Source: a bacterium (lineage in GTDB: Bacteria > UBA8248). Taken from it: a stretch of DNA of 64,000 bases. Positions 26,033 through 64,000 of the stretch are shown in pieces. Both the position numbers and the translations under genes were made by a program. Below the pieces are notes generated by a model, which saw only the letters and a list, made by a program, of their open reading frames with translations, did not search any database and was not told the DNA's origin. Each line of letters opens with the position of its first letter. Position 1 is the stretch's first letter. The stretch is taken from NCBI GenBank assembly GCA_965213685.1, contig CBDBZY010000051.1, positions 192,001 to 256,000 of the forward strand. Reading direction: 5' to 3'.

Positions 26033-30367
<4,335 letters not shown>

Positions 30368-33197: not shown

Positions 33198-34056
33198 ATG
33201 AAACACCTGCTGCTACTGCTGACGGCCGCCTTGCTAGCCGTTGGACGGTGCGCGTCTGACACGGTGGGTGACAAATGACGGGAGTAGCCGTCGACTGCAT
33301 GCCCATCATAGCGCCGCTTTACAGTGCATCAACACCAATATAGATACGTAGCCCCGAGAGGTTAGGTATCTAAGACATCATGTATTTACGGATATGTCCA
33401 CCGGTGATTCCTTGCAGTTCGCGTGTACCAACTGCACTACGGAGTACACTCAAGTGATATACCGCCTGCATTTCCCCCATATCAACTGCTACGGGGGCGA
33501 AGGGAGCAGCATTGCACGCCCAGATCCCATCAATGTCAGCCTGCCTGTCCAAGAAAACAATACATACACACTTCAGATGGTTATGGAGGCAGCTACCGAC
33601 CAGGACGAATCCTACCAGTTCAGTGCACAGTACCAGGGTGAGGTGACCGGGTACCTGCTGGAAGCAGTGAATGGAACTGAGGAGAATGGTGACTGTGTGT
33701 GGATCCTCTACTACCAGGCACCGGGGGAAGCAGAGCCAACCCGCCGTGATGAATTTCAGAGTGCTGTGTCCTTTTTTGAGGTCGAATCAGAGAGCACCAT
33801 TGTGCTGTGTTTCCAGAGCACAGTCCCTCCTGAGCCACCGACAACTTCATCCCCCCCCAGCCCATCTCCCAGCCCATCACCCAGTGCTGCTCCACCCGAA
33901 CTGCCCAGCTCCCAGCCTGCCCCAGTGACCTCCCCAACCCCCCCACCTTCCACTGATGCACCAACCATGGGACCGGGGAGTGGCTCTTCACCCTCTAGAC
34001 CAGCTGTTTTTGTTTTCTTGTTTACCATACTTCTCTGTTTGTGTATAATTTTTTAA
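33198..34056 (+). CDS. Secreted, C-terminally anchored protein with one transcobalamin beta-domain-like (DUF4430) module; paralogue 1
   Basis: Exon 1 33198-33263 signal peptide MKHLLLLLTAALLAVGRCASDT; exon 2 33418-34056 TLQMVMEAA..YQFSAQY..GYLLEAVNG..CVWILYY..VSFFEV..STIVLCF; P/S/T stalk; hydrophobic C-terminus with no cytoplasmic tail. Confidence 0.75.
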
Positions 34057-34421
34057 GTAGATGGATCATAATAATAATAATTGTAAGATATTGTGTTTTG
34101 GTCTTGTCTATTACATTTGGAAGTCAAATTCTCTTGGGATAAGGTGTTAATGGAAGAGCATACCTCTGAAATGCCTGCACCCACCCTGTTCACTCCCACG
34201 TTCTTGGAATGCCGTATATACATACTGTTAGGAGGTGTGCTATTGCACTATTGTATCAGTGAAAGGCGCAGTTGAGTTGCCAGCAGCAGTGCAAGGTACG
34301 AAGAGCGAAGGCCCTGGCTGGAGCATACGTACATTTTATTTGCATTATAATATGCGAGCATTAAACCTTTTTATTTTCTCTCCCCGGACTTTTATCAGTG
34401 CGTGGTATAGGGCGGCTGAAG

Positions 34422-36091
34422 ATGACACCTCCGTTCCACCTTCTTACGCTAGTGCTTCTCACAGGACTCGCTGTCGCAGGCGTGAGTTATGCACGCACCG
34501 TAATAGTATGTACAGGTCCAGCTAACACAACTACCTACATCTAGGGGGTATAGGCATGGACTCACTTGGCAATACATTGATTGAGGCAAAGAACATAAAA
34601 TGTAGTAAACTACATGGATATTAGCCTCGCGAGACGTATGCTGCAAGGACATGAGCTCACTGTGCAATACGTTGATCGAGAAAAATGTTTCTACATGAGT
34701 ATGACATCGTCACGGCTCTGGTGCTGTAAACGTAAGCGCTTGTGTATTACTACAAGCCACTCCCTTTACATTTTGCGCACTTGGTTCATTGCACAAGAAT
34801 GCGCGGAGGAGTTAGGGCGGATAGCTGAAGTGTGCACATGTTTGTCGCGTGGAATACGCTGGGTGGCAGCACCTGTTCAAACTGCTCTGGGTGGGTAGGG
34901 GGCACTAAACAAACAATGGGATGAACACAGTTCATAACATGTACGGAGGCACTGCATGTCGTGATGATGTATCTATATTTTTCTCCCTCTTCCCAGAATG
35001 CTACAAATGACACAACCGAATGCCCGACAGATCCTCCTCCAACTGATCCTCCTACATACTATGGCCCGTACAATGTGATGTATGACATAGAGTATCCAGA
35101 CCAGGACTGCTTTGGATTGATCAATCGCACTATGTCAGTTAACAACGAGACAACCTGGATGCTGGTATACGACGTGCCTAACCCATTTACAACGACAGTT
35201 GAGTTGCAGGCGGATATCACTCATGGTGTGACATATGTTGTACAGGATGTGCTGGAGACAGCAGTAGATGAGAACTCTGATGTGTTCTTCAGTGTCACGT
35301 ACACTGGCTCAGTCACTGGCTACTTTGTCAGAGCCATAAAAGGCCTGAGGAGCAACAATAACTGCAAGTGGTTCCTGTACTACAAAGCACCCAACGTACC
35401 TTACCCCTTCCTGAGAAGCACTGGAGTGTCACTGTTTACAGCCGAGCCCAACTCTACAGTTGTGATGCGCTACCAGTACCCACCAGTCCACCATGTGTTC
35501 TATGAGCTCTACTTCCCTCACGTGAACTGCACTGACCCTGACCTCCCCAGGCCTGCTCCACTCAACATCAGCCTCTACTTTGGTGCACCCAACTACACAT
35601 ACACAGTTCAGAAGGTGATGGAGTTGGCTGTCGACATGGACCGCTCGTATGAGTTTACTGTAACATACTATGGGAAGTCACGAGGGTACGAGATTGACGC
35701 AATAAATGGTACAGACAACCATGAGAAGTGTGTCTGGCACTTCTTCTACCTTCCTGCTCGGATTCCAAGAGAACAAGCTACCATGCAGAGCAACATCTCC
35801 TACTTCAATGTGGAGGCCAACTCAACCATAATAATGAGCTTCCAGGAGCGGCCCACCATTGAGCCTCCTACGGAACCTCCAACTGACCCACCAGAACCTT
35901 CACCCACACCTGAACCCACTGGTGCACCGGTGCCCCCAATGGAGACTCCCACCGCTACGCCGACGCCCGATACCCCCGGCACCACGTTACCTCCTATGCC
36001 ATCGAGATCAGGAGCACCGAAACTCGCAGTGGGAATTCTCGCGCATGTGCTTTCTCTTGCAATATGTCTTGCCTATATGTATGTATTGTAG
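34422..36091 (+). CDS. Secreted, C-terminally anchored protein with two tandem transcobalamin beta-domain-like modules; paralogue 2
   Basis: Signal exon 34422-34481 MTPPFHLLTLVLLTGLAVAG|gtgagt; exon 34997-36091 with two modules (VQDVLETA..GYFVRAIKG..CKWFLYY..NSTVVMRY; VQKVMELA..GYEIDAING..CVWHFFY..NSTIIMSF), P/T stalk, hydrophobic tail. Confidence 0.75.
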
Positions 36092-36356
36092 AACGTAGCG
36101 AACGACTGAAATTCATGCATACCATATTATAGATGATGTAATGTTTTGCACAATTACTTTTTGCTGAAAAAGCCAGGGTTGGACACCATTGTATTCTCAA
36201 TACGAATCGCGAGAGTATAGAGGTGAGTTACTACTGTTATTTTAGCAAGAGAAGCGCAATTGCTACGGCGGTCGATTCGGCAATACACCCACACAGGGAT
36301 AGCCCTTTGGAAGCCATTCAGCTGCACTGCGAGCGCCCGTTGACATTCGTGCTGAT

Positions 36357-37107
36357 ATGTACCTCAGATCACTTCTCTTCTCGCTGTTGGTGGCGCTCTT
36401 CGCCATTTCTCACGGAGAGGTAAACAGTGCAACTCATCCTCTTCTTTCCTACCCCACCCATCTCTCCCTCCCACCTGGCTCACCCACAGTAGACTACTTC
36501 TTACTTATTTCACACAGCCTTTCTGCCTAAAGAATATCCCTTTCCCCTTCCTCTCCTCTCCCCCTCCTCCCTCCTCCTCCTTCCTCCCTCATCTCTCCTC
36601 TCCTGCCAGGCGGAGCCCCAGGTCAACTACAAACTAGAGTTCTATGTGAACTGCTCTGCTCTCAACGGAACAGTGGAAGAGCTGGGCCCTGTCACTGTTG
36701 AGCTGGAGGACACTCCCTCCACAGTGCAGGATGTCATGGAGCTGGCAGCAGACGATAGCGCTGAGTACCATTTCACCGCCACCTACTACAACCGAAGCAC
36801 TGGCTATGTGATCAATGCTGTCAGTGGGGTGTGGGAGGCTGAGGACTGTCAGTGGTACCTCTGCTACCAGGCCCCTGACGAGCATGCTCCACAGTTCCAG
36901 AGAGGTGCTCGCATCTCAAAATTCATGGTTAAAGCCAACTCTACTGTTGTGCTGAAGTACCAGCCCCCTCCCGCCATCCCACCCTCCCCCACCCCCTCCC
37001 CCACCCCCATGGCAACTGATGATGATGACTCAGCCCCGCCCATTGTTGCAGCCAATCTCCTGGCAGTTCTCCTCTGCCTCTTCATCGGAATGGCCGTACC
37101 ACTCTGA
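36357..37107 (+). CDS. Secreted, C-terminally anchored protein with one transcobalamin beta-domain-like module; paralogue 3
   Basis: Signal exon 36357-36419 MYLRSLLFSLLVALFAISHGE|gtaaac; exon 36610-37107 TVQDVMELA..YHFTATYY..GYVINAVSG..CQWYLCY..NSTVVLKY, Pro stalk, hydrophobic tail. Confidence 0.75.
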
Positions 37108-61060: not shown

Positions 61061-61179
61061 CACAAGCGAAAATTTGTTATTGCGCTGTCCCGCTTTGGAT
61101 GCGGCCTACACGTATAAGCACCCGCTTGAAGGGCTTCCTACATAAGCTCAGAGCTCGCCTGCACTGAAGTGGCCGGGAT

Positions 61180-64000
61180 ATGTCCCTGTGTGAGGAAAAC
61201 CAAGACAAGATCATCCGAGCGTGCGCCAAGGGAAATTTTAGGTACGCAGTTGAGCTCAGTAAGAATCTTAGGAGCGACGAATTCTCGGCAGTTGTTAGCA
61301 AGCGTGGATGGACTCCACTGCACTATGCGTGCAGTTTTTGCCGTGTGAAGTATGCAAGTACTTTGAATAGCCTCGGCTACGATCCGCGGCAGAAGGACTC
61401 CACGGGAGTCACGCCCCTGCACCTGGCCTGTCAGTATGGCCCACTGGAGATGGTTCAACTTCTGATTAACAATCTGACTGCGTTGGATTACAACATAGAG
61501 ACTGAGTGTGTGGATTCAGACATGAATACGCCCGTCCACAGCGCCTGTCAGTACGGCCAGCTGGACACGATGAAGACGCTATTAAGGTATGTCAACGAAG
61601 CGGTCGTAATGCAAAAAAATCGCGACGGCGACACGCCGCTTGGTATCGCCTTCCAACAAGGAGAGGTAGGCATCGTCATGCTATTTGCCAGAATTATACC
61701 CAGCGCGAAGATAAAACAGCACATCACCAGGGAGGAAGGCACAGTACTCTTTCATAAAGCTTGCGAGTATGGCAGAGTAGAAGCTGTGGACTTTCTCCTG
61801 AAAAATGGCTTCAGGTTGCATCAGGTAATGGAGATGTACAAACGTTCTGCAGTGCATGTTGCTAGCACGTATGGACAAATGGAGGTGCTAGCAGTATTGG
61901 TTCAGTATGGATGTCAGCCCAGCACACTTACAGATTACGAGGGTTCTACTCCTCTCCATGTTGCATGTTGGCATGGACATTTGAATGTGGTACAGAGACT
62001 AATATGTAGACATTCTTGCAATCCCCTGGAGGAAAACTCCAAAGGGGAAACCCCTTTCTCATTGGCCTGCATTAGTCATCACTATAGTATTGCAAGGTAT
62101 ATTCAGCATTGGTTGGCTTCCCAAGGTGACGTACCAGAAGACATAGCAGCAGCTTCATGGCCTAAGGTGGACGAGTTGCCCTCTGTATCTGAGCCATATA
62201 GATCAGAGGATGACATTGTGTTACTTACGTTGCAGGCTGTTGAGCGCACTAGTGTCCCACTAAGTTACCAACAGCAACTTCACATGGCATGCCAGAGAGG
62301 TGTTCTGGATGTGGTGAAACTACTGAGTGAGTCAAACATTGACCCACTCCTGCCAATTACTGAAGAAGGCCATTCTGCACTTCATGTGGCTTGCGAATAT
62401 GGCCAAAGTGACATTGCTAGGTACCTGATTGACACACATGGGTGTGACCCTACGTCAAAAACCAAGAATGGGTCCACAGCATTCCACTGTGCTAATAATC
62501 CAGCACCAAATGCTGCACATAACCCTCTTGATATTGGAGTGCTCTTTGAGAAATACTTCAAAGAGCACCATGGCAACACAGGAACATATCACACCGGGAC
62601 TGATGATGAACCTGACATTCACGAGAAGAGAAGAGAAAACATTCAGCACTTGAAATACTTTCAAACATTGGACTTGGATTCCAAGAATGATGAGGGGAAG
62701 ACTGCATTGCATTATGCATGCCGTCATGGTTTAAAGGACAATTTGAGACAGCTGCTTTCCATGGGTTGCAATCCATTCATAAGAGACAAGGAGTGTAACA
62801 CTGCTATGCATCTGGCTTGCTTATCGGGTAATGCTGAAACAATATCCACTCTCTCTAGTTACAGCAGTAAATTATGTAACCCAAGGTGTAAGAACAGCTA
62901 CCTTGACACACCTCTGCACTTTGCTGCATCTACTGGAAACATGGAACTGGCAACTTCATCACTGAGACTCTTTCAAAAGAATGTTTGGTACAGACCAATA
63001 CCTCAAAATTGTGTGTGGGACACACCACTGCATGAAGCCTGCCGATCTGGTTCAGTTGACTTTGTTCGCTATCTTGTAGAAGAGATGAAGTACAAAGTCA
63101 GAGTCCGAAATAAATCAGGTGAGACTCCTCTTCACAGTGCTTGCTGCAAATCTGGCAATGTGCAAGTAGTTAAGTATCTTGTGACAAAGATGGGAAACCC
63201 ACTAGTAAAAAACAAAGTGGGAGATTCACCACTGCACAACGCCTGTGCATTTGGGCAGTATGAAATTGTGAAGTTTTTGATTAGTCACTTGGCTGAAGCC
63301 AAACTTAAAAAGCTCCACAACAATCAAGGTTTCAATCCTCTGCACACTGCATGCAGCTTTGGACAAGATATCATCGTGAAGTATCTCCTACAGTGCTCCA
63401 TATGGGATCCAAACAAACCTGACTGTGCTGGTAGAACTCCTCTCCACTGTATTTTCCAAGGGCTAGAGCTGGAATATTGCTCACATGCAGCTGCCCAAGA
63501 GACATTAGAACAGCTATTGACCAAAAAGAGCCTGAATCTGTCTCTATTGGACCACAATGGACAGACTCCCTTTGCCATGTGTAACAGCACAAAGTTAGAA
63601 AAAATCTTGCTTCACAATATGAAAAACTCTGCCGAGATGTATGTAAAGTATTGTGGCCAACTTCAACCACAGTCTCTCCCAGCATCATCTCTGGTTGTGT
63701 TTGTGTTAGGAAACAGAGGTGTGGGCAAGAGCTCTCTGATTGCATCTCTTCAGAAAGAGAAGAAGCTCTCTCTTTCTCAAAAAGTCACAGTTGTGTCACC
63801 ATGCACAGCAGGAATAGTCCCAAGCAAATTTTTCAGTAAAGCATATGGTTCGGTGATGTTTTATGACTTTGCTGGCCACTACGAATATTATGCTGGACAC
63901 TCTGCCATTTTGCAAAATTGTGCAACTTCTAAGATCCCCCCACTTTTCCTGGTAGTGGTGAACCTGGAGGAAAGCAGTGATGACATCAGAAAGAGGCTAG
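61180..64000 (+). CDS. Ankyrin-repeat plus Roc GTPase (ROCO/DAPK-like) protein, 3'-truncated by window edge; intronless so far
   Basis: Frame open from ATG 61180 (upstream in-frame TGA at 61165) to the window end, so it is absent from the ORF track. Many TPLH..AC..G ankyrin repeats, then P-loop GNRGVGKS (~63709-63732), TAGI and YDFAGHYEYY. Confidence 0.9.
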   Translation, partial: MSLCEENQDKIIRACAKGNFRYAVELSKNLRSDEFSAVVSKRGWTPLHYACSFCRVKYASTLNSLGYDPRQKDSTGVTPLHLACQYGPLEMVQLLINNLTALDYNIETECVDSDMNTPVHSACQYGQLDTMKTLLRYVNEAVVMQKNRDGDTPLGIAFQQGEVGIVMLFARIIPSAKIKQHITREEGTVLFHKACEYGRVEAVDFLLKNGFRLHQVMEMYKRSAVHVASTYGQMEVLAVLVQYGCQPSTLTDYEGSTPLHVACWHGHLNVVQRLICRHSCNPLEENSKGETPFSLACISHHYSIARYIQHWLASQGDVPEDIAAASWPKVDELPSVSEPYRSEDDIVLLTLQAVERTSVPLSYQQQLHMACQRGVLDVVKLLSESNIDPLLPITEEGHSALHVACEYGQSDIARYLIDTHGCDPTSKTKNGSTAFHCANNPAPNAAHNPLDIGVLFEKYFKEHHGNTGTYHTGTDDEPDIHEKRRENIQHLKYFQTLDLDSKNDEGKTALHYACRHGLKDNLRQLLSMGCNPFIRDKECNTAMHLACLSGNAETISTLSSYSSKLCNPRCKNSYLDTPLHFAASTGNMELATSSLRLFQKNVWYRPIPQNCVWDTPLHEACRSGSVDFVRYLVEEMKYKVRVRNKSGETPLHSACCKSGNVQVVKYLVTKMGNPLVKNKVGDSPLHNACAFGQYEIVKFLISHLAEAKLKKLHNNQGFNPLHTACSFGQDIIVKYLLQCSIWDPNKPDCAGRTPLHCIFQGLELEYCSHAAAQETLEQLLTKKSLNLSLLDHNGQTPFAMCNSTKLEKILLHNMKNSAEMYVKYCGQLQPQSLPASSLVVFVLGNRGVGKSSLIASLQKEKKLSLSQKVTVVSPCTAGIVPSKFFSKAYGSVMFYDFAGHYEYYAGHSAILQNCATSKIPPLFLVVVNLEESSDDIRKRL

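Follow-up and report, generated by a model that had tools for sequence, protein, structure and literature searches.

A three-gene cluster encoding candidate membrane-tethered transcobalamin beta-domain proteins in animal DNA from a bacterial assembly

RESULTS

Three co-oriented genes share one plan

We analyzed a stretch of 64,000 nucleotides (nt), referred to below as the window, which covers positions 192,001 to 256,000 of contig CBDBZY010000051.1 in GenBank assembly GCA_965213685.1, assigned to Bacteria. The subject of this study is a cluster of three genes, g1, g2, and g3, lying in the same orientation at 33198-37107 on the + strand. An original prediction, made from the letters of the sequence, had proposed that these genes encode surface proteins carrying copies of a module that resembles the beta domain of transcobalamin, intrinsic factor, and haptocorrin, the vertebrate carriers of vitamin B12 (cobalamin), and that they capture B12. 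The coordinates and the shared gene plan that it gave, a phase-0 signal-peptide exon followed by one large exon, were correct according to our own reading of the sequence, in which splicing is a prediction. The features of the three genes are as follows.

33198..33263, + strand: g1 exon 1, predicted signal-peptide exon of 22 codons (66 nt), phase 0, donor GT at 33264
Between 33263 and 33418, + strand: g1 intron, 154 nt, phase 0, predicted
33418..34056, + strand: g1 large exon, 212 amino acids (aa) and TAA; begins with a Cys-rich segment, followed by one module, a Pro/Ser/Thr stalk, and a hydrophobic tail
34006..34053, + strand: g1 C-terminal hydrophobic stretch, resembling a glycosylphosphatidylinositol (GPI) signal; its best 15-aa window stops 1 residue short of the stop
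34422..34481, + strand: g2 exon 1, predicted signal-peptide exon of 20 codons (60 nt), phase 0, donor GTGAGT
Between 34481 and 34997, + strand: g2 intron, 515 nt, phase 0, predicted
34997..36091, + strand: g2 large exon, 364 aa and TAG; two modules, stalk, hydrophobic tail
36029..36088, + strand: hydrophobic stretch at the C terminus of g2, last 20 aa without charged residues
36357..36419, + strand: g3 exon 1, predicted signal-peptide exon of 21 codons (63 nt), phase 0, donor GT at 36420
36420-36609, + strand: g3 intron, 190 nt, phase 0, predicted
36610..37107, + strand: g3 large exon, 165 aa and TGA; a single module with a short Pro-rich stalk and a hydrophobic tail
37042..37104, + strand: hydrophobic stretch at the C terminus of g3, last 20 aa without charged residues; almost the same in the 83%-identical relative P0006

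All three first exons start with ATG and encode a hydrophobic core, with a best 10-aa Kyte-Doolittle mean of 2.6 to 3.0. Because each of them consists of whole codons (66, 60, and 63 nt), the introns are in phase 0. GT lies directly 3' of every first exon, and a pyrimidine tract with AG lies directly 5' of every large exon; reading through the introns led to a stop at codon 27, 41, or 58. This gene anatomy is established. The g3 intron (36420-36609) was found to be mostly a C/T-rich low-complexity tract, and 36537-36594 was flagged as a repeat and skipped in the alignment of reads.

The large exons contain four copies of one module

The large exons carry four modules of 120 to 140 aa, one each in g1 and g3 and two, A and B, in g2.

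33448..33822, + strand: g1 module, transcobalamin-beta / DUF4430-like fold
35063..35482, + strand: g2 module A, with a 14-residue insertion modeled as an additional beta hairpin
35486..35851, + strand: g2 module B, transcobalamin-beta-type module
36610..36969, + strand: g3 module, modeled with high confidence (see below) and matching the beta domains of haptocorrin, transcobalamin, and intrinsic factor

When the four modules were aligned, identity to the g1 module was 34 to 43%, and 23 columns were invariant, two of them Cys. All the motifs named in the original prediction were recovered in four of the four modules. Pairwise BLASTP matched g1 with g3 at an E value of 8e-23 and g2A with g2B at 1e-17, far beyond chance. 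No copies beyond these four were found in the 7.97-Mb (megabase) assembly. The insertion in g2A, at 35126-35170, had no counterpart in the other three modules and formed the extra hairpin (E19-26 / E29-36) in the structural model. A relative from another assembly, P0008, which contains the orthologue of g2A, likewise has additional residues at this site.

The modules fold like the beta domains of vertebrate B12 carriers

The structure of the modules was examined using AlphaFold2 (AF2) models. The g3 module was modeled with a predicted local distance difference test (pLDDT) score of 94.5 and a predicted template modeling (pTM) score of 0.87; for the two-module part of g2, the values were 87.4 and 0.73. 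With the g3 model as the query, Foldseek returned 17 matches in PDB at E <= 1e-3. The 15 rows listed were all transcobalamin, haptocorrin, or intrinsic factor, and the remaining two were further chains of those entries. The original prediction had proposed this comparison and had named the lack of a structural match as a ground for rejecting it, a ground that these matches contradict. In a comparison with 48,161 chains by VIA-align, haptocorrin scored Z 15.2, and bovine transcobalamin, intrinsic factor, and the isolated beta domain of human transcobalamin scored Z 15.1 each, with 99 to 106 residues aligned at a root mean square deviation (rmsd) of 1.8 to 2.0. The Ruminococcus gnavus protein 3u7z followed at Z 12.2, and the next fold, an unrelated one, scored Z 8.1.

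In the g3 model, a helix (H39-49) was followed by a beta hairpin (E55-59 / E66-71), and both modules of g2 had the same order of elements in their model. A hairpin placed after the helix defines the transcobalamin-like clade within the SLBB superfamily and contacts B12 (PMC1796856). Two marks of this clade were present in the model, namely, the superposition of the overall fold and the hairpin inserted directly after the helix. With respect to the two glycines conserved across the superfamily, G65 (g3 numbering) was near-invariant in 54 sequences of the family and aligned with a Gly in intrinsic factor and haptocorrin. The superfamily Gly after strand 2 was common in the family consensus, but just one of the four window modules had a Gly in this stretch.

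The modules belong to a family overlapping DUF4430

The original prediction had also likened the modules to bacterial DUF4430 proteins and had suggested a HMMER search against that Pfam family (PF14478, gathering score of 23.8 bits). This search left the window proteins unmatched: the three large-exon proteins had no match to PF14478 at E <= 10, and the assembly, translated in six frames, had no match at E <= 1. The only two Pfam matches of the window proteins, both weak, to Kre9_KNH (22.5 bits, under its cutoff) and DUF7678 (E of 0.16), were taken as noise. An exhaustive search with the module profile retrieved 173 proteins at E <= 1e-3, and the statistics on relatives given here cover the 150 listed among these 173 matches. 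PF14478 matched 33 of the 150 at E <= 0.01, 7 of them above the gathering cutoff. Because the window proteins had no hit and 33 of their 150 relatives did, the former lie outside the reach of the PF14478 model and inside a family that overlaps it. A look-up with a protein language model ranked a DUF4430 cluster first (score of 0.89), which we treat as a lead only.

A single-module profile of 54 sequences (A2) matched residues 292-372 of human intrinsic factor with an E value of 4.7e-6 and haptocorrin with an E value of 0.1. A profile made from the four window modules alone found nothing significant among PDB sequences, the best hit being an unrelated epimerase (E of 0.77). Together with the modeled fold, these sequence comparisons confirmed the homology of the modules to the beta domain of the three vertebrate carriers, as well as to DUF4430 proteins from bacteria. 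The likeness claimed earlier therefore stood as homology, through the profile, the fold, and the relatives, and failed as a match of the window proteins to the Pfam DUF4430 model. Fold and homology are established.

The vertebrate carriers also have an alpha-barrel domain, which the original prediction had described as missing here. The Pfam scan found no Cobalamin_bind (PF01122) match in the window proteins, and each protein is taken up entirely by its modules, stalk, and tail. According to these sequence data, the window proteins have no alpha domain and are not two-domain carriers, and this absence is established as well. PF01122 had no match in the assembly either; as the control did not match in any of the genomes and the assembly contains just part of the host genome, this result is uninformative.

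The modules stem from old duplications

A maximum-likelihood tree was built from 47 modules, with envelopes covering at least 95 profile positions kept and P0007, the window's own duplicate, removed. g2A grouped with the first module of P0008 (support of 100/99) and g2B with the second (98/94), g1 grouped with P0010, P0011, and P0043 (99/95), and g3 grouped with P0006 and P0013 (98/95). These eleven modules formed one clade (99/95). Because each module pairs with an orthologue in another assembly, the duplications that gave rise to the three genes and to the two modules within g2 predate the separation of the organisms. Judging from the tree, the four modules are old paralogues that have all been retained, and their age is established. 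The term "diversified," applied to them in the original prediction, thus holds in the sense of four distinct retained paralogues; it does not hold in the sense of a recent lineage-specific burst, since each module has its own orthologue.

Of the 20 clusters looked up, only two carried a name, one a protein of the freshwater sponge Ephydatia muelleri and the other a protein of the marine snail Batillaria attramentaria, the latter under the database name "DUF4430 domain-containing protein." The Batillaria attramentaria protein P0012 (836 aa) consists of near-identical units that each open with a signal-peptide-like segment, and it looks as if a single gene model had fused several beta-only genes lying in tandem. 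P0010, the relative of g1, has a signal-peptide-like N terminus directly before a Cys-x-Asn-Cys-Thr start like that of the g1 large exon; judging from its sequence, the signal of P0010 may not be on a separate exon in its organism. Scans of genome and metagenome contigs found no related loci in which synteny or conservation of the signal exon could be compared.

These relatives bear on whether the cluster could be a set of chance open frames, pseudogenes, or an assembly artifact. No RNA run was listed as containing the stretch, and the assembly otherwise consists mainly of bacterial contigs with 65% guanine-plus-cytosine (GC) content; both points speak for an artifact. In the four sequencing runs that contain the stretch, it is intact and identical, in unspliced, DNA-like contigs (they come from one study, possibly the source of the assembly). 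This intactness, the 173 matching proteins, the orthologue of each module, the confident AF2 models, the intact open frames, and the canonical splice sites all argue against an artifact, which we consider very improbable. At the level of sequence, the gene cluster is confirmed as a real feature.

The proteins are predicted to be secreted and tethered to the membrane

The peak content of Pro, Ser, and Thr over 40 aa in the stalks was 82% in g1, 70% in g2, and 47% in g3. The most hydrophobic 15-aa stretch of the large exons ended 1, 5, or 6 residues before the stop, with 1, 0, and 0 charged residues within the final 20 aa of g1, g2, and g3, respectively. Small residues were found 5 to 10 positions upstream of the hydrophobic stretch (Gly/Ser in g1, Ser/Gly/Ala in g2, and Asp/Ser/Ala in g3). 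According to hydropathy and charge counts, all three proteins have the architecture of GPI-anchored proteins, with a signal peptide, a C-terminal hydrophobic stretch not followed by a tail, and small residues preceding it. N-x-S/T sequons were enriched (4 in g1, 11 in g2, and 4 in g3), and the observed counts were reached in 38, 0, and 5 of 2000 shuffles, respectively. A stalk and a terminal hydrophobic stretch without a cytoplasmic tail, as reported in the original prediction, were therefore present in all three genes by composition and hydropathy, and the fusion of module and membrane tether in one polypeptide was borne out by the sequence features. From these features, the C-terminal hydrophobic signal is most likely replaced by a GPI anchor.

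A different possibility is that the proteins bind corrinoids and are shed or secreted, either as carriers or as proteins for storage or sequestration that keep B12 or its analogues from microbes, the tail being a transient or cleaved signal. For the vertebrate and teleost homologues, the literature describes soluble carriers (PMC10778862, PMC4350170). A hydrophobic C-terminal end was found in just 29 of the 150 relatives, many of the others being fragments from short contigs; 19 had a stalk, and 13 had both. Against this possibility, stalk and tail are kept in all three window genes and in their closest relatives: the 13 proteins with both, one of which is the window's own, were all among the closer ones (E <= 1.5e-13). 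The tail of g3 was, moreover, almost unchanged in P0006. We consider it improbable that the proteins act as soluble carriers or stores.

The window is animal DNA, likely from a sponge

The assembly is a mixture. Most of its contigs have a GC content of about 65% (61 to 69%), and a second set has about 33 to 54%. The 481,697-base contig that carries the window belongs to the low-GC set, among contigs with 42 to 54% GC; the contigs of the low-GC set include some of 1.64, 0.81, 0.59, 0.53, and 0.48 Mb. Despite this mixture, the quality figures of the assembly are prokaryote style (completeness of 94.19% and contamination of 3.68%).

The window does not have the gene density of a bacterium. Pfam families found in it include filamin repeats, a Prp19-type WD40 fragment, TPR/CS, a BTK motif, a Surp module, GMP-PDE delta, the C-terminal domain of ribosomal S5, and ankyrin repeats with Roc. 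On the evidence of its sequence, we take the contig to be animal DNA carried along with a bacterial genome. The host is likely a sponge. Among the neighbors of the cluster, an open frame of 870 codons upstream (27032-29644, - strand) had no Pfam match at E <= 0.001. A long open frame that leaves the end of the window (61168-63999, + strand) has many ankyrin repeats and a weak Roc match, an architecture like that of DAPK/LRRK.

Conserved positions coincide with ligand-anchoring elements

We next weighed the evidence on the ligand. The sole invariant or near-invariant columns in the 54-row alignment were F55, G65, and W82 (g3 numbering), all within the hairpin and the next strand. In the hidden Markov model alignment, intrinsic factor and haptocorrin had the same residue at all three positions. 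Both of these structural elements have been named as ligand anchoring (PMC11107200, PMC1796856). Binding of B12 starts at the beta domain, and beta-only carriers exist (PMC11107200). The human transcobalamin beta domain alone binds cyanocobalamin and cobinamide and has been crystallized with each (PMC5599065), and the beta-only zebrafish proteins Tcnba and Tcnbb are reported in a review as high-affinity cobalamin binders (PMC10778862). Bacterial members of the clade are described as surface anchored and encoded beside cobalt/B12-type transporters (PMC1796856).

Several observations weigh against corrinoid binding or a role in B12 capture. Identity to the solved carriers was just 11 to 22%. Since B12 is contacted mostly through the backbone (PMC1796856), low sequence identity alone does not speak against binding. 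The bulky residues of the carrier beta domains are W359 in haptocorrin and intrinsic factor and Y362 in haptocorrin and transcobalamin (PMC4350170). According to the alignment with haptocorrin, modules g1, g2A, g2B, and g3 have T, T, R, and T at the former position and L, F, E, and V at the latter. The pocket thus lacks residue-by-residue conservation, and module B of g2, which is acidic at the Y362 position, may bind poorly or bind another ligand. The isolated transcobalamin beta domain has a lower affinity than whole transcobalamin (PMC5599065). The failure of the PF14478 model to match the window proteins or the assembly belongs here as well. No B12-related families were found in the 22 long open reading frames scanned in the window. 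CobD/CbiB, CbiC, and CobS had no match in the assembly, while the controls matched in 6 to 9 of 14 genomes; with these three synthesis markers unmatched, the co-assembled bacterium does not look like a B12 producer.

The main rival explanation keeps the fold and the tether and assigns them a non-corrinoid ligand (a soluble molecule, a metal, or a microbial glycan), the proteins serving in the recognition of microbes or prey or in adhesion. Ligands vary across the SLBB superfamily, which includes polysaccharide-export and DNA-receptor proteins (PMC1796856), and Wza-type chains were present in the VIA-align list at Z 5.4 to 5.5. The relative 3u7z was deposited as a "putative metal binding protein," and the variation across the four modules at positions that are bulky in the carriers (PMC4350170) would suit another ligand. 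Heavily glycosylated, stalked surface proteins with several paralogues would also be typical of recognition molecules. However, the structural match was specific to the transcobalamin-like clade, with Z values of 15 against 5 for the Nqo1/Wza clade, and the hairpin that defines the former is present in the model. The most conserved columns of the family lie on the ligand-anchoring elements, and the clade members whose ligand is given in the cited papers all bind corrinoids. A non-corrinoid ligand is possible, though on the unlikely side.

DISCUSSION

A proposed mode of action

Our preferred reading, which we consider moderately probable, is that the three genes encode stalked, GPI-tethered, glycosylated animal surface proteins that capture a corrinoid and are then internalized. 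The genes, probably those of a sponge host, would encode secreted, N-glycosylated surface proteins from which the signal peptide is removed. One or two beta-grasp modules of the transcobalamin-beta type (SLBB / DUF4430-like) would be held off the membrane by the Pro/Ser/Thr stalk, with a GPI anchor most likely taking the place of the hydrophobic C-terminal signal. Each module would most likely bind one corrinoid, either cobalamin or an analogue, through the face that the clade-specific beta hairpin makes up together with the strands after it, as used by the vertebrate beta domains in the first step of B12 capture. The loaded, tethered protein would then be internalized in the manner of a GPI-anchored vitamin receptor. 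We infer secretion, GPI anchoring, a corrinoid ligand, and uptake from the features described above, and both corrinoid binding and the role of a B12-harvesting receptor are candidate functions of the window proteins.

The GPI-anchored folate receptor is a high-affinity binder on the outer leaflet of the membrane and is internalized with its ligand. The mode of action proposed here is alike, while fold and ligand are unrelated, so the likeness is one of analogy only. The Bacteroides proteins BtuG and BtuH resemble the window proteins in concept, being lipid tethered and capturing B12 outside the cell. They are described as bacterial outer membrane lipoproteins that pass B12 to a TonB-dependent transporter, and they are likened here by concept, not by fold.

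Comparison with related proteins

The window modules share with the beta domains of vertebrate transcobalamin, intrinsic factor, and haptocorrin the fold over the whole domain and the hairpin after the helix, and the latter two carriers have the same residues at the near-invariant F, G, and W positions of the family. The vertebrate proteins, in contrast, have an alpha6/alpha6 barrel, which the window proteins lack, one or two beta modules in tandem being present instead. The window modules have an invariant Cys pair, whereas the four disulfides listed for rat transcobalamin are all in its alpha domain (PMC11107200). Furthermore, the vertebrate carriers are soluble and rely on a separate receptor, while the window proteins have a Pro/Ser/Thr stalk, a hydrophobic tether, and different residues at the bulky positions.

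Closer in domain content are Tcnba and Tcnbb of zebrafish, which consist of a beta domain with a signal peptide and for which cobalamin binding is reported (PMC10778862, PMC4350170). Solo C-terminal domains with signal peptides have been noted in fish (PMC1796856). Teleost proteins of this type are described as soluble carriers with a single module; the window proteins are predicted to be tethered, are stalked, and in g2 have two modules, so they are not of the soluble beta-only kind. The bacterial and archaeal DUF4430 or transcobalamin-like SLBB proteins, such as RUMGNA_00854 of Ruminococcus gnavus (3u7z), have the same fold. They are secreted and often anchored at the cell surface (PMC1796856), as proposed here for the window proteins. 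They are anchored by a sortase motif of the Gram-positive type or by accessory domains, whereas the window proteins have a predicted GPI-type signal of the eukaryotic kind, and the bacterial genes stand in operons with transporters, whereas the window genes are predicted to be spliced animal genes.

Thus, beta-only cobalamin binders in fishes and surface-anchored clade members in bacteria are already known from the papers cited. What is new, as far as the sequence tells, is the stalked, tail-anchored, partly two-module form in predicted spliced genes of a sponge-like animal. We found no report of transcobalamin-like proteins in sponges in the literature searched by title and abstract, supplements aside.

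Implications for sponges and for the origin of animal B12 carriers

Symbionts of sponges have long been proposed, from metagenomes, as suppliers of B12 to their host. We know of no established route by which sponges take up B12. A more far-reaching proposal is that the window proteins are GPI-anchored sponge receptors for corrinoids from seawater, prey, or symbionts, that the beta-only form is the ancestral state of the animal carriers, before fusion with the alpha domain, and that the modules sort corrinoid analogues. If so, the pocket differences at the specificity positions may allow the modules to sort cobalamin from cobinamide or pseudocobalamin, and the module pair of g2 may grip a single ligand between its members, in the way that transcobalamin does with its alpha and beta domains. 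We regard this fuller scheme as unlikely, and we offer it tentatively.

Gram-positive bacteria have been proposed as the source from which animals gained a transcobalamin-like protein, a gain linked to gut bacteria (PMC1796856). Beta-only members in a sponge (Ephydatia) and a snail (Batillaria) suggest that the beta domain has a wider spread among animals than the two-domain carriers and may also be of greater age. The cluster described here therefore bears on the origin of the animal B12-carrier family, and the tethered beta-domain family provides a concrete, clonable candidate for the uptake of B12 by sponges.

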